A stretch of DNA of 64,000 bases from Candidatus Latescibacterota bacterium (GTDB lineage: Bacteria > Latescibacterota > UBA2968 > GCA-2709665). Position 1 is the first letter of the stretch. Every line of letters starts with the position of its first letter. The position numbers and the translations under genes were made by a program. The stretch lies in the NCBI GenBank assembly GCA_965116875.1, contig OZ220733.1:3616001-3680000 (forward strand), given 5' to 3'. Under the pieces are notes generated by a model that searched no databases, was not told the DNA's origin, and saw nothing but the letters and a program-made list of their open reading frames with translations. Below are positions 3,427 to 55,044 of the stretch, piece after piece.

Positions 3427-4554
3427 TCAGGCTGGGGGCGTGAGGCGGGAGGCGTCGGTGAGTTCCCGTACGACGGAGCGGGCATCGCCTGTTTTCTTCA
3501 GGATATCCACCTGCCTCTGCGCCCAGGTCGGGCAGGACGCCAGGTCCAGAGTCCGCTCGAGGTAGGGAACGCAATCCAGGTCCTGCGCGGCGGGCATCAG
3601 TTGATCGACGAGGCGCCGCACGAGTTCACGCGCCGGCAGGAGCTGGTAGGTGTCCGAGTCTACAAGTTGAGCGTCGAGTCCGTAGCGGGCCGCGCGCCAC
3701 TTGTTCTGCCGAATGAGCATGGGGTGGCAGTCGTGTTGGTAGATTCCGTGGTCGATGTGGTCGGACAGGTATTTGATGAGGGACTGCATCATGGCCACAA
3801 GGCCGAGTGTATCGTGGAAGCTGCCGGGAATATCGCAGATGCGGACCTCGACCGTGCCGAATCTGTTGTGGGGGCGAACGTCCCACCAGATTTCCCGTAT
3901 GGTCTCGATGTACCCTGTTTCCACGAGGTGATTCACCAGCCAGACGTATTCGCTCCAGTTTCGCATCAGCGGGGGCAGGCCGGCGGTGGGAAGGCCATCC
4001 ATGATCTTGGACCGCCACGAGCAGACGCCCGTGTCGCGTCCTTCCCAGAACGGGCTGTTGCAGCTCAGCGCCAGCAGGAGCGGCATGTATCGCAATATGA
4101 ACTCGCAGATCATCACCGCCTTGTCGCCGCTGTCCACGCCCACATGCACGTGCAGACCGAACGTAACCAGTTGGCGAGCCGTGTCCTGCAGCAGGTCGAC
4201 CAGGCCCGCGTAGCGTTTGTTGGGTGTGATTTCCTGGTCCTGCCACGTGGAAAACGGATGAGTTGCCGACCAGTATAGCCGCACGCCCTCCCGATCGGCG
4301 ATGGCCTCCAGCGCGCACAGTTTCTTTCTGAGGTCCGCCTCGACCTCCTGCAGCGTCATGCAGACATCTGAATTGATTTCCACGTAACACTGCATCAGCT
4401 CCGGCTTGATCGTTCCCTGCAGTTGCGGTGGAACGCGCTCCAGAAGCCTCTGGCTGGCGCTGCACAGCGCCATCGTTCGACTGTCCACCAGCGCCAGTTC
4501 GATCTCCACGCCAACCGTGGGTTCGCGGCTGGGGTTGAATTCCATCCGACTCAT
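3427..4554 (-). CDS. YbdK-family carboxylate-amine ligase (GCS2)
   Basis: TVGVEIEL, KPEL..VEINS, ATHPF, FGLHVHVG, LALSCNSPFWEG, WWDVRPH..FGTVEVRICD, NKWRAARYG. Confidence 0.92.
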   Translation of the reverse strand: MSRMEFNPSREPTVGVEIELALVDSRTMALCSASQRLLERVPPQLQGTIKPELMQCYVEINSDVCMTLQEVEADLRKKLCALEAIADREGVRLYWSATHPFSTWQDQEITPNKRYAGLVDLLQDTARQLVTFGLHVHVGVDSGDKAVMICEFILRYMPLLLALSCNSPFWEGRDTGVCSWRSKIMDGLPTAGLPPLMRNWSEYVWLVNHLVETGYIETIREIWWDVRPHNRFGTVEVRICDIPGSFHDTLGLVAMMQSLIKYLSDHIDHGIYQHDCHPMLIRQNKWRAARYGLDAQLVDSDTYQLLPARELVRRLVDQLMPAAQDLDCVPYLERTLDLASCPTWAQRQVDILKKTGDARSVVRELTDASRLTPPA

Positions 4555-5780
4555 CGCTTCGCCTCTTTTTCGTAAGTTTTCGGTTCCGACCAGCGCACGA
4601 CCGCTCGTGCCAGAATCTTTGCGCCAATGCCCAGCGCGCGTTCGTCAACGTCGAAATCAGGGGTATGCAGGCCCGTCGCCCTGGCCCCGGGTCGCGAGCA
4701 TCCGAGGCGAAACAGACTGCCGGGAACGCGTTTGAGATAATGGGCGAAATCGTCGCCCCCCATGCTGGGCTCTCCGATGTACTGGACCCGGTCGGCCCCG
4801 AGCAGATCGACCGCGCACTCCCGGACCAGATCGGTGAGACCGGGATCGTTCATGACCGATGGAGGTCCCGATCTGAATGTAACTTCAATTTTCGTTCCGG
4901 AAGCCCGGGCGACGCCGTCCGCTACCTCCCGCACGCGTTCAACGGCCCGGCGGCGCGCGTTTTCGTCGAGGCTGCGTACGGTGCCCTTCAGCACCGCGCG
5001 ATCGGGAATTGCATTGTACCGTTTTCCGGCTGTTATGGAACCAACCGTCAGGACAACGGTATGCCGCGGGTCCAGCGACCTCGGCACGGCCACGTACAGT
5101 CCATTGATCAACTGGGCCGCGGCGGCAATGGGGTCTCTTGACTCGTAGGGGCGGGCAGCGTGACCGCCGCTGCCCCGGACGAGGACGTGCATCTCGTCGC
5201 AATGGGCGGTGAGGACGCCCGAGCGATGCCCAATGGTTCCAGCCGGCCTCGAGGGATCCACATGCAGCGCCAGCATCGCGCCGACGCCCTCGAGTGCGCC
5301 GGCCTCGATCATTTCCAGGGCGCCCTGGTTCGTCTCTTCCGCGGGCTGAAAGATAGCCCGCCAGATAACGGGCCAGGGCAGATTCCCGGACGTACGTGCG
5401 GCGTCGAGCGCCAGCGCGGCCCCAAGGACAACTGCCGCATGGGCGTCGTGGCCGCAGGCGTGCATCACGCCGCTCACGCGGCTGCGATAGGCTACGGATT
5501 TGGCGTCCTGGATGGGCAGCGCGTCCAGGTCGGCCCTCATGGCGATTCCGGGCCCGGACCCGTTTCCTGCAGATTCGGCGATCACCCCCCGGGCTGTGGG
5601 TCCGGTGCGGACCTTTACACCGTCCGACGCCAACTGTTCTTCCAGGTACCGCGTGGTCCCCGTTTCCTCGCCGCTTATCTCGGGATGGGTATGGAGATGC
5701 CGCCTGGCCTGCACCATACGGTCCTGAAACGCATCGACGGTCTTGTCGAGTTGCCGGGGCCATTCATTTCGATCTGGCAT
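4551..5780 (-). CDS. M20D family amidohydrolase
   Basis: RRHLHTHPE, RADLDALP, MHACGHDAH, FQPAEE, GGHAARP, SMGGDDF, LHTPDF; alternative start 5795; overlaps the ligase start by 4 nt. Confidence 0.92.
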   Translation of the reverse strand: MPDRNEWPRQLDKTVDAFQDRMVQARRHLHTHPEISGEETGTTRYLEEQLASDGVKVRTGPTARGVIAESAGNGSGPGIAMRADLDALPIQDAKSVAYRSRVSGVMHACGHDAHAAVVLGAALALDAARTSGNLPWPVIWRAIFQPAEETNQGALEMIEAGALEGVGAMLALHVDPSRPAGTIGHRSGVLTAHCDEMHVLVRGSGGHAARPYESRDPIAAAAQLINGLYVAVPRSLDPRHTVVLTVGSITAGKRYNAIPDRAVLKGTVRSLDENARRRAVERVREVADGVARASGTKIEVTFRSGPPSVMNDPGLTDLVRECAVDLLGADRVQYIGEPSMGGDDFAHYLKRVPGSLFRLGCSRPGARATGLHTPDFDVDERALGIGAKILARAVVRWSEPKTYEKEAKR

Positions 5781-5969
5781 TGACGACGTGTTCATTCGGG
5801 AAGCGTGCGTTCGATATGGTTTGTACCGATGTGACCGTGTATTGAAAGAAACGCACCGGAACCGGATGATTCACCATACTGCGAATCGGTCGGTTCGGTG
5901 CGTCTGTCATTCGAACGGATTTACGGGAAGACACCCGATCGCGTCCGGACGGATCGGTGGATTCCCCAA

Positions 5970-7910
5970 TTAACCCGCGACCTCTTTGGCGATGGCGACG
6001 CATTTGGCGGCAAAGCCGTCGTAGGCGGCGCGGAACTCGGCGCTGGTTTTCTGCACGGAGCCGAAACCGGGCCAGTCGCCGGGTTCCAGGCCCCGGGTCT
6101 GCCAGCCGGAAACGTCAATGCCAACGACGTTCAGGAGGAAGTCTTTGAGGGACGGCGTGAGGTCGTAGCCGCGGCAGAAGTCCGGAAGTTCGCGAAGGCG
6201 CTGATCCACGCCTGGTTCGTACGTATCCAGCACCGCGTCCCTGAAGTCTTCGAGGTTGAACCCCTCCGCTTCAGAAGCTTCCTGAACGGCTCTCGCGTGA
6301 TTCGGGAATTCGGTATTGCACATATTGGACGCGCCCAGCGTGTGGAAGGAGTCTTCGGGAATGCGCTTGGAGGCCGGAAGTACATCCATTGAATCCACGA
6401 TCCACCGCGCCTGGCCGTCCGTGAGGCCGTACGTCTTTCGAAGATAGTCGGCCCACTTCGGTCTGTTTTCCTGACTGAAGAAGACCCGGTAGACGCGTCG
6501 CGCCACCAGCGTGCCCGCTTTCTTGAGGTCTTCTTCCAGAAGCCGGATGGCGTCAGCGGACTGGCCTGCGGATTCGGCTGCGGCCAGGACGATGGGATGG
6601 TCGAGGGTTTTGAGATTTGCGTACGCGCAGACCGCCCGCGCCCGGTCGGACAGTGACCCTCCGGCCGGATCTTCCGTGCCCAGATCGGCGGCCAGGGCGC
6701 CAAGGAGTTCGCTCGCCTTGCCTTCGCCGGTTCTTGCAGCGGCGGCGAGAAAGATCTTCTCGGCTTCGACTTCACGCAGGTGGCTCACGAACCGGCCGCC
6801 CATGTTGGTTTCGTAGGTGCGCACCACCTGTTCGCCCGCCTTCGCGGCACGGGCCTTGCCCTCGAACGCGTCCAGTATCAACTGGACTTCCTGGGCCACG
6901 GTGTAGACCACGGTGTTATTGGAGCCGATCGCATTGCTGTTGAGCGTTGTGGTGATTTTGCGCGCGGCCTCGTGGCTGGCGGCGACTTTGAAGACGATGT
7001 TGGGCCTGACCCGGCCGGAAAGGTCGCCCAGACCCAGAAGGCGGTCGTATCCTTCAAGGAAATCGGCGGCCAGCCGATATGCATTCCGTGCGTCTTCGAT
7101 GCTCTCGTCGGCCTGATCGGCGATGTTGGGATTCAGCTGGAAGCTGACCATGTAGTCCTTGAGGTCCGTATGCACCGCAAGCGGCCGGAAGATGGACAGG
7201 TTGGGCCAGAGGGCGATGAGGGTGGCCGCCATGGCGATTTCATCGGCGTGCGCTTCCGGGTCTCGCTTCCACTCGTCGTGTTTTTCGATTTCGCTCGTGA
7301 GTTGTTCGGCGAGCGAACCGTCTTCGTCGAAGGCCTTGGCGGCAAGCACCGGGTTCGTTGACACCTGGCAGAATCCATAGTGGCGCAGGTATTCGAGGCC
7401 ACGCGCATAGTCGTTGCCGAATTTACAGTAGTTGTCGCCGACCATCCTCCAGTAGACGCCGCCGCGCATCTGTTGTTTGAGCAGCGTCAGAAACGAACGG
7501 CCCGGGATTGCGTTATTCAGCTCCGCCTCGATGCGTTCGGCCAGAAGGCCCGAGAGGCTGTCGTTCAGGTTTACGGAATTCATATCGGCCAGAAATTCAG
7601 CCACCACGTCTGCCATAACGGACCCTTCGAGATCGTCGATGACGGCCAGTACCTGATCCAGCGCACGGTCGGACTCGTCCGCGTGGTATCCCACGATTTC
7701 CGCGTCCCGCCCCACGAAGTTCATGCCGAGCCGGATCAGCGTGCGGCACACCTCGGCGGCAGGGTAATCGTTGTTCTGCAGGACCGACAGGAGTTCCTCC
7801 ACGCGGGCGGACAGAGCGCCCGGCTGCGGATCGATGAGAACCTGGTCCGCCGCGGCGAGGGACTGTCCGTTTCCCATCGCTTCCGCGACGGCGGAGATGT
7901 CGATTGCCAT
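5970..7910 (-). CDS. Large transaldolase-fold protein with N-terminal extension and internal insertion
   Basis: STNP, SFQLNP, NIVFKV (Schiff-base Lys), NxTVVYTVAQ, GGRF and NT motifs occur in transaldolase order; GGGAGG SD before ATG 7910 (alternative start 7940). Confidence 0.7.
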   Translation of the reverse strand: MAIDISAVAEAMGNGQSLAAADQVLIDPQPGALSARVEELLSVLQNNDYPAAEVCRTLIRLGMNFVGRDAEIVGYHADESDRALDQVLAVIDDLEGSVMADVVAEFLADMNSVNLNDSLSGLLAERIEAELNNAIPGRSFLTLLKQQMRGGVYWRMVGDNYCKFGNDYARGLEYLRHYGFCQVSTNPVLAAKAFDEDGSLAEQLTSEIEKHDEWKRDPEAHADEIAMAATLIALWPNLSIFRPLAVHTDLKDYMVSFQLNPNIADQADESIEDARNAYRLAADFLEGYDRLLGLGDLSGRVRPNIVFKVAASHEAARKITTTLNSNAIGSNNTVVYTVAQEVQLILDAFEGKARAAKAGEQVVRTYETNMGGRFVSHLREVEAEKIFLAAAARTGEGKASELLGALAADLGTEDPAGGSLSDRARAVCAYANLKTLDHPIVLAAAESAGQSADAIRLLEEDLKKAGTLVARRVYRVFFSQENRPKWADYLRKTYGLTDGQARWIVDSMDVLPASKRIPEDSFHTLGASNMCNTEFPNHARAVQEASEAEGFNLEDFRDAVLDTYEPGVDQRLRELPDFCRGYDLTPSLKDFLLNVVGIDVSGWQTRGLEPGDWPGFGSVQKTSAEFRAAYDGFAAKCVAIAKEVAG

Positions 7911-7936
7911 TCTGGGGCCTCCCTTCACATCGTTAT

Positions 7937-8743
7937 TCATGCGATGCCCAGCACGTCTCTCATGCTGAACATCCCCCGCGGCGAGTTCACAGCAAAGCGG
8001 ATCGCCTGAATCACCCCTACGGCGTAGGAATCCCGGCTCTGGGCACGGTGTACCAGCTGAAAGACTTCGCCGGTGCCGCCGAAGATGACGGTATGCTCCC
8101 CGGCCAGGTCTCCCGCGCGGATTGCGTGGATGCCGATTTCATCGCCCGTGCGCGCGCCGACCTCACCGTGGCGTCCGTAAAGGGCCACGTCGTCGAGGTT
8201 TCGGCCCAGACCCCTGGCCGCGGCATTCGCCAGCGCGAGGGCGGTACCGCTGGGTGCGTCGGTCTTGAAGTGGTGGTGGGCCTCGACGATTTCCACGTCG
8301 TACGCGCTACCCATCATCCGTGCGGCGTCTTCCACCAGTTGGGTCAGTACGGTCACGCCAATGCTGAAGCTTGGGGCGAAGACGCAGGCGACGTCCCTGA
8401 CGGCCGTTTCGAATTCAGCAAGTTGCCGTGTCGACATGCCCGTGGTGCCCACCACCATCGGCTTGCCCGTTTTACCCGCGATACGAGCGGCGTCCAGCGT
8501 ACCGTCCGGGGGCGCCGTGAAGGCAACGACCACGTCCGCGTTTTCGATGACGGATTCCAGGTTGTCGACAACGTGGATGCCCGCGCGCTCCGTTCCCAGG
8601 AGCTCGCCGATGTCCCGCCCGATGGCCGGGTTGCCGGGCGCCTCCACGCCGCCGGCGACGTTCAGATCGCCGCTATCCATCGCCAGGTGGGCGATGCGGC
8701 CGCACATGCGACCCGCGATGCCGCAGATAACCAGGTTTGTCAT
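7937..8743 (-). CDS. dapB: 4-hydroxy-tetrahydrodipicolinate reductase
   Basis: GIAGRM, VVGTTG, EIVEAHHHFKTDAPSGTA, IRAGD..GEHTV. Confidence 0.96.
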   Translation of the reverse strand: MTNLVICGIAGRMCGRIAHLAMDSGDLNVAGGVEAPGNPAIGRDIGELLGTERAGIHVVDNLESVIENADVVVAFTAPPDGTLDAARIAGKTGKPMVVGTTGMSTRQLAEFETAVRDVACVFAPSFSIGVTVLTQLVEDAARMMGSAYDVEIVEAHHHFKTDAPSGTALALANAAARGLGRNLDDVALYGRHGEVGARTGDEIGIHAIRAGDLAGEHTVIFGGTGEVFQLVHRAQSRDSYAVGVIQAIRFAVNSPRGMFSMRDVLGIA

Positions 8744-8749
8744 GTGGAT

Positions 8750-8832
8750 TCTCCGCTGAAATTGACCTGCCTGGAGACACGCAACGGAAATGTCTGTCCG
8801 TTCTTGTCCGGATGGACTTTTTCAACGGGCTG
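8750..8832 (+). mobile_element. Degenerate short copy of MITE family A
   Basis: Right end CCGGATGGACTTTTTCAACGGGCTG is identical to the copies at 11716 and 54721; degenerate left end TCCGCTGAAA. Confidence 0.65.
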
Positions 8833-10626
8833 CTATGCGCTCAACCGATCCTCGAGGGCGTTGAGCTCAGTCAGCAGTCTCGCGGGCAGCCGATTTTCGA
8901 ACCCCGCGTAGAATTCGCGGATATCGGGCAGTTCGGCGCGCCAGGCGTCCGGGTCCACGGAAAGCAGCGCTTCAACGTCGGCTTCCGGGATGTCCAGGCC
9001 GTCCAGATCGAGGGCATCGGGGGTGGGCACGTAGCCGATCGGGGTTTCAACCGCATCGGCCGTGCCGTCAATCCGTTCGCAGATCCACTTGAGCACGCGG
9101 CTGTTCTCGCCGAATCCAGGCCAGAGCCAGTTCCCCTCGGCGTCTTTGCGAAACCAGTTCACATAGAAGATTCTGGGCGCGTTTTCGCCCAGCATGGCGC
9201 CGATTGCGAACCAGTGATTGAAATAGTCGCCCATATTATAGCCGCAGAAGGGGAGCATTGCGAAGGGATCTCTCCGCAGCTTGCCCACGGCGCCGGCTGC
9301 CGCGGCCGTGGTTTCGGACGCCATGATGGAACCGAGGAATACCCCATGCGTCCAGTCCAGCGCTTCGAAAACCAGAGGAACGACCGTTGAGCGCCGACCG
9401 CCGAAAATGAATCCGGACATCGGCACCCCGTCCGGATTCTCCCATTCCGGATCGATGACGGGGCACTGTGCCGCGGGTGCGGTGTACCTCGCGTTGGGAT
9501 TGGAAGCATTGTCTTCCGACGACGGCGTCCATTCGCGCCCTAGCCAGTCCTCCAGCCGGGCCGGCGGGTCGTCTGTCATCTCCTCCCACCAGACGTCGCC
9601 TTCGGGGGTGAGGGCCGTGTTGGTGAAGAGACTGTTTTTTTCAAGCGCCGCCATCGCGTGACCGTTGGATTTGAGGCTGGTGCCCGGCGCCACGCCGAAG
9701 AATCCGGCTTCCGGGTTGATCGCCCGGAGCGTGCCGTCGGGACCCTGGCGCATCCATGCGATATCGTCTCCGACGCAACTGGCCTTCCAGCCCGGGACCG
9801 TGGGCTGCAGCATGGCCAGGTTCGTCTTTCCGCACGCGGACGGAAAGGCGGCGCCGATATAATGTTTCCTGTTCTCGGGAGACGTGAGGCCCAGGATGAG
9901 CATATGCTCGGCCATCCATCCTTCGTCGCGGGCCATTGTCGATGCGATGCGAAGGGCGAAACACTTCTTGCCAAGCAGCGCATTGCCGCCGTAGCCGGAG
10001 CCGTAGGACCAGATGGAGGGCTCGTCGGGAAAGTGTACGATGTATTTCTGATCTGCGTCGCAAGGCCAGGAGACATCGGACTGTCCCGGCTCGAGCGGAG
10101 CGCCCACGGAATGCATGCAGGGGAGGAAGTCGCCGTCACCCAGGGCGTCCAGCACCGGATCGCCCGTTCGGGTCATAATGTGCATGCTGCAGACGACGTA
10201 AGGCGAGTCGGAGATTTCCACCCCGATTTTGGAGGTCGACGAACCGATGGGGCCCATGGAAAACGGGATGACGTACATCGTCCGGCCGCGCATGGAACCG
10301 TCGAACAGGCCCTTCAACGTACGTTTCATCTCGACCGGCTCCCGCCAGTTGTTGGTGGGTCCCACGTCCTCTTCGTCCGGCGTACAGATGTAGGTGCGGT
10401 CTTCCACTCGGGCGACGTCGCCCGCATCCGAGCGGGCGAGAAAGCTGTTGGGGCGAAGGTCCGGATTCAGCCGGATGAACGTCCCGGACCGGCACAGCAA
10501 ATCGGCAAGCCGATCGTACTCTTCGCTTGAACCGTTGCACCAGTAAACGTCTTTCGGTTGGCAGAGCCTGGTTGCTTCGTTGACCCAGTCCAGCAGTTTG
10601 CGGTTTGTGGTTCTTGCGTTTCTCAT
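8833..10626 (-). CDS. pckG: Phosphoenolpyruvate carboxykinase (GTP)
   Basis: [76 protein letters not shown]. Confidence 0.97.
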
Positions 10627-10652: not shown

Positions 10653-11690
10653 TCAGTCGGCGTACGCCAGGTCTTCCAGAACCGAGGCGTCCGCGACACG
10701 GCTTGATATGTCCACGTTGAAGAATTGTTCGATCGGGGCGAACAGTTCCGGATTGTTGCGCTGAACGGTTCGTGCGATTTCAAGTACCTGTTTCAGTCCC
10801 GCCCGATTCATTCGACCCAGCGGCCGCCTGCACGGACCGGCGGGCATGCCGAGTATATTCATCAGTGTCTTTATTGGCACGGGGTTGCGGGCCTTGACCT
10901 GCGTCGTCCCAAAGGGCGTCTCTTCGTTCGAGAGAACCGTGACCATTCCGAAAAGGGGTTTGAGCGCATCCGCCAGACGATCCGCTTCAGCCATATCGCC
11001 TTCCAGAATCGCCTGCGTAAAACGCTGAATGGGACCGGGAACCACATTGGACATGACGGAAATGACGCCGGTTGCGCCGATGCGGGCGTCTGTCATCATC
11101 GCGTAGGTGACGTCGTCGTCTCCGGAGAGTATATAGAAATCGTCGCCGCAGACTTCACGGGTCCGGGCCATGTTTTCCAGGTCGCCCGTGGCTTCTTTGA
11201 CGGTGTTGACGTTTCCGTATTCGCGGTGCAGGATGGCCAGGTCTTCCGGAAGCAGTTTTGTTCCCGAACGGCCGGGAATGACATAGGAGACCATCTGGAT
11301 TTCCGGGAAGGCTTCGGCGACCGGCGCGATGTATTCCCGGCGGATTTCAAGCGAACTGGGGCCGTTGTAATATGGATCTACCAGCAGCGCGGTATCGGCT
11401 CCGGCGTGTGCGGCGTGTTCCGTTGCGCGCAGGGTTTCCTCGGTGGAATTGCCGCCGGTGCCGGCGATTGCCCGGCATTGCCCTCCGGTCAGCGAGCAGA
11501 CCCGTTCGGTGACGCTGTTGTGTTCCCCGCTGTTGAGGGTTGGGCTTTCCCCGGTGGTGCCGACTGCCAGTACACCGTTAACTCCTTGCGAAACCTGAAA
11601 TTGGACGAGATTCTCCAACCCTGGTTCATCGACGCCTTTGTTGGGATCCAGGGGTGTGATGAGGGCCGTGTAACATCCGCTGAATAACAT
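10653..11690 (-). CDS. dapA: 4-hydroxy-tetrahydrodipicolinate synthase (long variant)
   Basis: TALITP, GTTGESPTL, PYYN, YVIPGR, VKEATG, SGDD, NPVPIK; GGAGGT SD before ATG 11690; lysine riboswitch upstream. Confidence 0.92.
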   Translation of the reverse strand: MLFSGCYTALITPLDPNKGVDEPGLENLVQFQVSQGVNGVLAVGTTGESPTLNSGEHNSVTERVCSLTGGQCRAIAGTGGNSTEETLRATEHAAHAGADTALLVDPYYNGPSSLEIRREYIAPVAEAFPEIQMVSYVIPGRSGTKLLPEDLAILHREYGNVNTVKEATGDLENMARTREVCGDDFYILSGDDDVTYAMMTDARIGATGVISVMSNVVPGPIQRFTQAILEGDMAEADRLADALKPLFGMVTVLSNEETPFGTTQVKARNPVPIKTLMNILGMPAGPCRRPLGRMNRAGLKQVLEIARTVQRNNPELFAPIEQFFNVDISSRVADASVLEDLAYAD

Positions 11691-11715: not shown

Positions 11716-11875
11716 CAGTCCGTTGGAAAAGTTGCTCTGCAGGCGAGGCCGAGCCATTGTGGTCGAAGACAAGGCGCGCGACCGAGTCCCATCCTGCGAT
11801 TCGGCGAGGGAGCGCAACGCAGGTTTTCGACCGCAAGGGCAGGCCGTAGCCCGGATGGACTTTTTCAACGGGCTG
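11716..11875 (+). mobile_element. MITE family A, 160-bp copy
   Basis: Imperfect TIRs CAGTCCGTTGGAAAAGT / ACTTTTTCAACGGGCTG; near-identical to 54721-55044 apart from that copy's nested insert. Confidence 0.85.
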
Positions 11876-11887
11876 TTTAGGGGAACC

Positions 11888-11935
11888 CAAAAAAAACAGC
11901 CGGTTCCCGTTGGGGATGGAGGCAAGGCCGGCCGT
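11888..11935 (-). terminator. Riboswitch expression-platform terminator
   Basis: On the minus strand: CGGCCGG...CCGGCTG followed by a T-run; contains CCTTGCC, complementary to GGCAAGG of the riboswitch P1 5' strand. Confidence 0.75.
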
Positions 11936-11956
11936 GCAAGTTCCAGCATGGATGGC

Positions 11957-12134
11957 GCAAGAGAGCACTCCACGGAGCTTTCCGTGACAGTCCAGAGGAT
12001 CTTATCCGATTGGACCAGCCCCTGTCTGCGGCGAAACAGATTCGGGACTTCGGCAGGTTCACCCTTTCACCGATGAGCCGATTACGCCTCGCATTCACCG
12101 GGTACTGTTGAAAACCTGCGCCTCTACCCTTGCC
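11957..12134 (-). ncRNA. Lysine riboswitch (L-box)
   Basis: Minus strand reads GGCAAGGGTAGAGGCGC...AGTA...GAAAGGG...GCCGAAG...CTGG...ACTGTCA...GGAGTGCTCTCTTGC; about 178 nt; directly upstream of dapA. Confidence 0.93.
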
Positions 12135-54720: not shown

Positions 54721-55044
54721 CAGTCCGTTGAGAAAGTCGCTCTGCAGGCGAGGCCTGGTGTTCCGGCCCGGAAATATGTCACCATTCATCCGCCGATTCA
54801 TCCCGTCTGGCGGCGTTGCCTTCGCTCGGTGACCGTAAGCAGGTCGCCTTGCTCAGGCGCCTTGCCAGCCGGGCGACTCGGCGGCCAAATTTCGGCAATC
54901 TATTTCCGGGGCGGAACACTTGCCATTGTGGTCGAAGACAAGGCGCGCGACCGAGTCCCATCCTGCGATTCGGCGAGGGAGCGCAACGCAGTATTTCGAC
55001 CGCAAGGGCCGGCCGTAGCCCGGATGGACTTTTTCAACGGGCTG
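54721..55044 (+). mobile_element. MITE family A with perfect 4-bp TSD, carrying nested element C
   Basis: CTAA|CAGTCCGTTGAGAAAGTC...GACTTTTTCAACGGGCTG|CTAA. Confidence 0.9.
54758..54919. mobile_element. MITE family C, 162 bp, nested in A
   Basis: TIRs GTGTTCCGGCCCGGAAATA / TATTTCCGGGGCGGAACAC (18/19); absent from the A copy at 11716. Confidence 0.85.

Follow-up and report, generated by a model that had tools for sequence, protein, structure and literature searches.

Transaldolase (TAL) and fructose-6-phosphate aldolase (FSA) are workhorses of biocatalytic carbon–carbon bond formation, and their specificity is set by two positions, one holding Glu or Gln and the other Phe or Tyr. PMC7092467 describes five transaldolase subfamilies and supplies the subfamily III label for the transaldolase of Corynebacterium glutamicum (3r5e), with which we group that of Neisseria gonorrhoeae (3clm/7bbx); these enzymes are 350–360 aa long. 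Escherichia coli transaldolase B (1onr/1ucw) is represented also by structures of its D17, N35, E96, T156, S176, F178, and R181 mutants. E. coli FSA, a 220-aa enzyme of subfamily V, has Gln at the transaldolase Glu position and pairs it with a catalytic Tyr (Y131); the PDB titles of two FSA entries name the variants Y131F (4rxf) and Q59E (4rxg), and PDB titles show the Glu and Phe/Tyr positions to be where mutations convert or eliminate the activities of TAL and FSA. The 6-deoxy-6-sulfofructose transaldolase (PMC7491151) offers a precedent in which a member of the TAL family has taken up a ketose donor outside the classical set. Here we describe a gene, which we call bigTAL, in a 64,000-nt stretch (hereafter the window) of a Candidatus Latescibacterota genome (contig OZ220733.1, positions 3,616,001 to 3,680,000), where it follows the lysine-biosynthesis gene dapB. 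Its product belongs to an unnamed branch of the TAL/FSA superfamily that is expanded in architecture and carries an unusual catalytic pair, and the link to lysine is weak. On balance, we think it probable that bigTAL represents an undescribed, deep-branching clade of the superfamily whose members act as accessory sugar-phosphate (trans)aldolases, lysine control being local to this genus.

The superfamily threshold is passed by the Pfam model TAL_FSA (PF00923), which matches with 43.8 bits where 27 are required. This match covers residues 183–354 of the 656-aa form of the reading frame and only profile positions 13–148 of 285, which implies an N-terminal extension of ∼160–170 aa and an interruption in the C-terminal half of the barrel. 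The NCBIfam transaldolase models (TIGR00874/TIGR00876/NF002881) score far below their cut-offs (31.7 vs 367, 25.6 vs 233.75, and 18.9 vs 344 bits), the FSA model TIGR00875 is absent from the NCBIfam matches at E ≤ 0.01, and a phmmer search of bigTAL against the PDB gave 0 matches. An AlphaFold model built with 22 diverse homologues (pLDDT 95.3, pTM 0.93) confirms a TAL-type (beta/alpha)8 barrel and shows how it is elaborated: an N-terminal helical domain (∼1–160) precedes the TIM barrel (∼163–375 plus ∼505–535), which is split by a helical insert (∼375–505) of ∼130 residues after the T-N-M-G-G-R strand and is followed by a C-terminal helical extension. Of the 37 PDB structures that Foldseek matched at E ≤ 0.001, every one listed is a transaldolase or FSA; the top matches are the N. 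gonorrhoeae transaldolase (E 1.7e-8, template modeling (TM) score 0.78 on the target, 14% identity) and the C. glutamicum enzyme. When residues 1–160 were modelled alone (pLDDT 89), the N-terminal domain had no significant match in the PDB (best E 0.6, TM ≤ 0.36 on the query). A search of the ESM Atlas gave only TAL_FSA-labelled clusters of 582–696 aa, and nothing was found there with PF00923 excluded.

The translation contains the motifs IVFKV, QVSTNP, VSFQLNP, and ETNMGGRF. When the family profile is aligned with the N. gonorrhoeae transaldolase, QVSTNP pairs with G-V-T-S-N-P, V-F-K-V with I-K-V, and S-F-Q-L-N-P with S-L-E-V-S-P, which puts Gln258 on E93, the Glu named in the title of entry 7oey; Lys308 aligns with the Schiff-base Lys, a fourth-strand residue, of both the N. 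gonorrhoeae and the C. glutamicum enzymes. Tallies over 98 family sequences show that Lys308, Gln258, Asp167, Asn186, Thr333, Arg373, Ser514, and Arg516 are invariant (98/98), and the invariant active-site set also includes Ser184, Asn331, Thr368, and Lys515. Two further residues are specific to the clade, Glu534 (98/98) and His377 (97/98). Asp167, a position beyond the reach of the alignments, follows model strand 163–166 and is a candidate for the catalytic Asp with which the first barrel strand of the superfamily ends. Met370 is found in 97/98 sequences just after model strand 365–369, and by motif register, with the invariant Arg373 aligned to the transaldolase Arg, it would occupy the Phe (TAL)/Tyr (FSA) position.

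An earlier note, made from the DNA letters alone, had called the product a non-canonical transaldolase-fold protein of 646 aa with a ∼160-aa N-terminal extension, an insert after GGRF, the Schiff-base Lys in IVFKV, a retained STNP, and Gln in place of the transaldolase Glu. This description is upheld throughout: the open reading frame (ORF), the length of an identical database protein, and the translation agree on size, position, and motifs; the partial PF00923 match and the AlphaFold model account for the extension and the insert; the profile alignment supports the Lys, STNP, and Gln assignments; and the fold comparison leads to TAL and FSA structures. The note's claim of Met at the Phe/Tyr position is borne out as far as conservation goes, its placement coming from motif register only.

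In the mechanism that we propose, Lys308 would bind a ketose (phosphate) as an imine at its C2 carbonyl, retro-aldol or aldol chemistry would come next, and Arg373, Ser514, and Arg516 would hold an anionic group, probably a phosphate. With neither the Glu of transaldolase nor the Tyr of FSA present, the acid/base role would pass to another invariant residue, probably Asp167 together with a residue specific to the clade, for which Glu534, His377, and Tyr366 are candidates. The substrate would be other than the classical pair of fructose 6-phosphate (F6P) and sedoheptulose 7-phosphate (S7P), and the reaction would not be a step of lysine biosynthesis.

Set beside the described enzymes, bigTAL is closest in structure to the subfamily III transaldolases (TM 0.71–0.78 on the target), with which it shares the barrel, the Schiff-base Lys strand, the S/T-x-N-P motif, and the N-x-T strand. 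It departs from them in sequence (14–15% identity), in having Gln for their Glu (E93), in its three added modules, and in its length of 646 aa. E. coli FSA has the same superfamily fold (TM 0.61 on the target, Foldseek E-value only 1.7e-2) and, like bigTAL, the Gln, but where it has Tyr, bigTAL by motif register reads Met. For E. coli transaldolase B (12% identity), counterparts of the mutated residues can be placed in the bigTAL motifs: Asp167, Asn186, Thr333, Thr368, and Arg373 are invariant in the family, whereas the counterparts of Glu96 and Phe178 are Gln and Met. The 6-deoxy-6-sulfofructose transaldolase is likened to bigTAL as a precedent, and no sulfoquinovose-pathway gene is present among the neighbours annotated.

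For the family as a whole, a word-indexed protein search gave 773 matches, and the best 120 of these are 60–100% identical to bigTAL, mostly ∼635–655 aa long, and named only "hypothetical protein" or "transaldolase (family protein)"; source names of the relatives include Gemmatimonadota, Latescibacteria, Poribacteria, and Dehalococcoidia metagenome-assembled genomes. An exhaustive search of 1.84 billion representatives returned only 110 matches at E ≤ 1e-3; ∼16 of them are full-length clusters, and some, more distant members at ∼40% identity, come from Thermoprotei archaea; TAL-like proteins from outside the family appear only at E 1e-8 to 1e-3. The nearest of these outsiders are not classical transaldolases but a second uncharacterised TAL-like clade of 355–580 aa (P0202, P0206, P0207, P0211, and P0220). 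This mid-size clade shares with bigTAL the motifs G-N-D-Y-A, S-L-Q-V-N-P (with the Gln), V-F-K-V-P, and T-x-M-x-G-R (with the Met), and it too is far below all NCBIfam transaldolase cut-offs; it differs in being without the 130-aa insert, His377, and Glu534. P0226 (1084 aa) groups with the mid-size clade, and two giant proteins, P0200 (2953 aa) and P0214 (4369 aa), have a similar TAL-like domain near residue 2400. No description of a large transaldolase-like family or of an operon such as the one below was found in the literature searched, most subscription journals being outside that search.

Within the phylum, bigTAL is present in 50 of 168 genomes: 19/21 genomes in family f1, 27/31 in f2, 3/3 in f3, and 0/112 in the other eleven families. 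It is an accessory gene, patchy across the phylum and absent from sister genomes that have the same operon. The canonical short transaldolase is encoded in this genome (206.8 bits) and in nearly all of the genomes of the three families (f1, 21/21; f2, 30/31; f3, 3/3). We considered and rejected the idea that bigTAL replaces it, as the short enzyme is co-resident in every lineage with bigTAL.

The features of the locus are collected in Table 1.

Table 1. Coordinates, in window positions, of the lysine-riboswitch operon and the elements around it
Feature	Position	Strand	Evidence or remark
Lysine riboswitch aptamer	11955..12134	minus	RF00168, 78.2 bits, E 9e-19
Possible riboswitch expression platform, hairpin plus run of eight U	11889..11936	minus	centroid fold only
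MITE-like repeat, 160 bp	11716..11875	not assigned	at least 40 genome copies
dapA, 345 aa	10653..11690	minus	TIGR00674, 222.9 bits vs cut-off 206
GTP-dependent phosphoenolpyruvate (PEP) carboxykinase (PEPCK)	8833..10626	minus	NF003253, 970 bits
dapB, 4-hydroxy-tetrahydrodipicolinate reductase	7937..8743	minus	TIGR00036, 251 bits vs 122
dapB–bigTAL spacer, 26 nt	7911..7936	minus	holds ribosome-binding site GAAGGGAGG
bigTAL, large TAL/FSA-superfamily gene, 646 aa	5970..7910	minus	
Two stable hairpins directly 3' of the bigTAL stop codon	5840..5966	minus	minimum free energy -63.8 kcal/mol, z -2.8

On the minus strand the riboswitch aptamer is followed by dapA, PEPCK, dapB, and bigTAL and then, after a 174-nt gap, by genes for an M20 amidohydrolase and a YbdK/GCS2-type carboxylate-amine ligase. 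The dapA start is the ATG at 11690 behind GGAGG; a longer 379-aa ORF from 11792 reads into the MITE-like repeat. The hairpin of the possible expression platform folds no better than shuffled sequence. The genome holds a single copy of dapB, and its second lysine riboswitch (G000:C1:4859818-4860003, locus L012; 84.4 bits) precedes asd, an archaeal-type aspartate-semialdehyde dehydrogenase gene (NF006416, 428 bits). With the sole dapB in this unit and the other lysine riboswitch in front of asd, we are dealing with a true operon for lysine biosynthesis. The PEPCK gene is the only GTP-type homologue in the genome by tblastn, a search in which the ATP-type enzyme was not sought. Its place between dapA and dapB is confined to family f1 (L041–L043, L045, L046, L059, and the bigTAL-less G040 and G041) and is not seen in f2. 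It is unusual for lysine to control an enzyme of gluconeogenesis or anaplerosis.

The bigTAL ORF spans 5970..7940 and would give 656 aa at full length, from an alternative ATG at 7940 that shares the sequence ATGA with the dapB stop. Translation more likely begins at the ATG at 7910, which has GAAGGGAGG 7 nt upstream and gives the 646 aa that gene callers assign to P0002, the identical database protein. The dapB stop at 7939–7937 then leaves a 26-nt spacer. Simple scans of this spacer and its surroundings found no promoter-like or terminator-like site, and the minus strand has no TATATT-like hexamer in 7880–8800. Terminator-like hairpins occur only after the bigTAL stop, where the second is followed by UUUCUUUC, and they are the probable end of the transcription unit. 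Because the short spacer carries a ribosome-binding site and no such signals, and because the hairpins stand only past the stop, bigTAL in this genome is very probably part of the lysine-riboswitch transcript, as judged from these sequence features. It would then most likely be co-transcribed with dapA, PEPCK, and dapB and switched off by lysine. An RNA-library run (X1, labelled as a sponge metagenome; 0.13 of sampled words) yielded short contigs at a depth of 3–4 that cover 6207–7050 in bigTAL, 7917–8142 (the dapB end and 20 nt of the spacer), PEPCK, and dapA. These contigs say nothing either way about co-transcription, and DNA carry-over is possible.

The relatives present a different arrangement. 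We examined 12 loci from genomes and 80 from metagenome contigs and counted a locus as unlinked when at least 1 kb of upstream sequence held neither dapA nor dapB. Directly upstream of bigTAL, dapB is found in 20 of 73 evaluable loci; the other 53 are unlinked, and 19 loci were too short to judge. In a FastTree phylogeny every linked row falls within one clade of 29 rows, which also holds the unlinked L052, L061, and L057, some rows of insufficient length, and three proteins without context data; the dapB linkage therefore has a single origin. A riboswitch precedes dapA in 15/15 linked loci that include the dapA 5' flank. In three sister genomes of the same order (G040, G041, and G063), the riboswitch-dapA-(PEPCK)-dapB array is kept, the operon ends at dapB, and no bigTAL homologue is found anywhere in the genome.

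The linked relatives have dapB–bigTAL spacers of 35–296 nt. A TATATT (-10-like) hexamer is present in 13 of the 20 linked spacers, those 105–296 nt long, often as a conserved TGGTATATT-like element, the extended -10 form, located 54–137 nt before the bigTAL ATG (L034, L036, L037, L043, L044, L047–L051, L053, L054, and L056); near-duplicates among these loci reduce them to about eight independent cases. At some loci CCCTTGTTGCC and a strong terminator behind dapB come before the element; this terminator, seen right after dapB in L043 and L047, is a strong hairpin, rich in GC, with a T-run. The TGGTATATT-like element looks like a dedicated bigTAL promoter, and because of these elements and the terminators after dapB, most relatives probably transcribe bigTAL on its own. 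In this genus, then, the 26-nt junction is derived: the place behind dapB would have arisen once, in one lineage, and the spacer would then have collapsed. In L046, a relative with 91% identity, the otherwise short spacer contains a GC-rich hairpin of ∼60 nt (9891–10001).

These comparisons divide what the earlier note had said of the gene's regulation. Its placement of bigTAL close behind dapB with no terminator between them agrees with the 26-nt spacer and the missing motifs. The proposed co-regulation by lysine is supported for this genome, where bigTAL is very probably on the riboswitch transcript, and fails among the relatives, in which membership of the lysine-riboswitch regulon is not conserved. 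Likewise, homologues do cluster with dapA/dapB, at 20 of 73 evaluable loci, all of one clade, and an independent promoter was not found for bigTAL in this window and is probably present in relatives. The suggestion of a role in supplying lysine precursors or acting on aspartate semialdehyde is not sustained, given that no pathway step tested lacks a candidate, that sister genera lack bigTAL, and that its neighbours in distant clades are sugar and inositol genes.

Those distant neighbourhoods come from crude ORF picking in metagenome contigs. In the distant clades bigTAL lies near genes for myo-inositol-1-phosphate-synthase-like (MIPS-like) proteins (12 loci), DUF4432 proteins (10), and UxaE-like epimerases (7, besides L062, where a 483-bit UxaE match overlaps the bigTAL end). 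Zinc-dependent alcohol dehydrogenases and 2-hydroxyacid dehydrogenases follow (6 loci each), then HAD phosphatases and sugar ABC transporters (5 each), fructose bisphosphatases (4), xylose-isomerase-like TIM barrels (3 + 3), and KduI/IolB proteins (3). Family f3 has a PpiD/SurA-like chaperone as neighbour. UxaE, the sugar gene that recurs most among the neighbours, is found neither in this genome nor in f1 (0/21), so an obligatory partnership with it is rejected for this lineage and the sugar contexts point no more than broadly to sugar-phosphate chemistry. The clade most distant from bigTAL includes three metagenome contigs (L108, L114, and L123) in which the large TAL-like gene is immediately preceded by one for a eukaryote-type topoisomerase IB.

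We also asked whether the lysine pathway lacks a step that bigTAL could fill. The genome encodes a DapL-like aminotransferase (484 bits to TIGR03540, below the cut-off of 593), while DapD_Ac and Ddh were not found in it. Because the DapL-like enzyme is present, no lysine-pathway step tested is vacant; a function of bigTAL in a missing diaminopimelate step is rejected on this ground and because sister genera manage without the gene. The genome, which is 97.7% complete, has no match to type II dehydroquinate synthase (PF01959) and one PF00793 gene of the DAHP-synthase family, and an archaeal-type aminodeoxyheptulosonate route using aspartate semialdehyde is rejected accordingly.

Against this background the rival explanations can be weighed. 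That bigTAL is a Schiff-base aldolase of lysine metabolism, taking aspartate semialdehyde as acceptor or supplying precursors as a true member of the lysine regulon, would explain its tight junction with dapB in the window, the riboswitch-dapA-dapB-bigTAL order in 20 loci with a riboswitch wherever the dapA flank is included, and the otherwise purely lysine-biosynthetic regulon to which the asd riboswitch testifies. We regard it as quite improbable: the operon exists in sister genera that have no bigTAL, dapB linkage is missing at 53 evaluable loci, the promoter-like TATATT element occurs in 13 of 20 spacers and L043 and L047 have terminators after dapB, the DapL-like aminotransferase makes DapD_Ac and Ddh unnecessary, and the archaeal-type transaldol route is excluded. 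Selected co-regulation would ask less of the enzyme; under lysine limitation bigTAL and PEPCK would together reroute carbon to oxaloacetate and pyruvate for lysine. Two central-carbon genes do share one lysine-riboswitch operon in family f1, the PEPCK copy there is the only GTP-type one found, and the adjacency is retained over order-level divergence. Yet the relatives seem to use bigTAL's own promoter, the f2 operon is without PEPCK, it is not evident how a transaldolase reaction would be tied by stoichiometry to pyruvate or oxaloacetate, and bigTAL has an accessory distribution, so that we think this account doubtful.

An ordinary transaldolase isozyme, converting F6P/S7P with glyceraldehyde 3-phosphate (G3P) or erythrose 4-phosphate (E4P) and carrying extra domains, is what the TAL fold, the conserved Lys, Asp, Asn, and Thr residues with the Arg/Ser anion site, and the PF00923 score above cut-off would suggest at first sight. 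It is unlikely in our estimation, since the catalytic Glu is Gln in every family sequence and the Phe/Tyr position Met in all but one, these being the very positions that PDB titles name as mutated to switch or abolish activity, since a canonical transaldolase coexists in every lineage with bigTAL, and since very strong conservation, at 60–93% identity among the best matches with source names from four phyla, suggests a distinct constraint. A non-catalytic or regulatory TAL-fold protein, to which the loss of the canonical acid/base residues and the divergent relative P0140 (without the Lys motif) might point, is highly improbable when Lys308 and the whole residue set around it are invariant in 98/98 sequences, as expected of an active site. 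A bolder proposal treats bigTAL and the mid-size Gln/Met clade together as a sixth, functionally distinct TAL/FSA branch with a new acid/base arrangement (Gln258 and Met370 plus Glu534, His377, or Tyr366), wired in this genus to lysine alongside the only GTP-PEPCK, so that central carbon flow would come under a control that senses lysine. Its substrate, to be cleaved or formed, would be a ketose phosphate outside the classical ones, perhaps a keto-sugar of tagatose type or one derived from inositol, as the UxaE, MIPS-like, and IolB neighbours suggest. We consider this speculative and, taken whole, rather improbable.

Several observations also weigh against our preferred account of an accessory sugar-phosphate (trans)aldolase with locally acquired lysine control. 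No X1 RNA contig bridges the dapB–bigTAL junction, the two genes being covered separately. The adjacency to dapB persists across two families of an order whose dapB proteins are 60–73% identical, and PEPCK, a second central-carbon enzyme, has been recruited into the same operon; together these hint at selection rather than accident. The distant-clade neighbourhoods are heterogeneous, the substrate class is inferred only from them and from conserved residues, and with UxaE absent, their sugar context may not transfer to this genome. The assignments of Met370 and of the phosphate site rest on motif register.

Some features of the operon's surroundings were recorded along the way. The MITE-like repeat, whose ends are imperfect inverted repeats, lies between the riboswitch platform and the true dapA start. 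At least 40 copies at 88–98% identity are present in the genome (163 first-look candidates, 40 scored), and read depth over the repeat is 480–1000 vs 11–13. Further copies in the window lie at about 54922–55044 and 54721–54755. A fragment at 8792–8817, in the 89-nt PEPCK–dapB spacer, matches one end of the repeat and has a DNA-run depth of 59 vs 11; it may be a trace of the event that brought PEPCK into the operon. The M20 amidohydrolase and YbdK/GCS2 ligase genes (3427–5795) overlap by 4 nt and stand behind the operon only in the closest relatives (L045 and L046). The amidohydrolase matches TIGR01891 at 356 bits, and its nearest named models, CpsA carboxypeptidase and N-acetyl-diaminobutyrate deacetylase, are both below cut-off.

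Because the clade is invariant at its active site and strongly conserved across several phyla, the Gln/Met pair and the three extra modules likely hold a new substrate or stereochemistry. The analysis fills an annotation gap for hundreds of proteins named only "hypothetical" and provides an example of how a riboswitch-controlled transcript can take in an accessory gene within a single genus. Judged by gene order only, bigTAL would have been placed wrongly in lysine metabolism.

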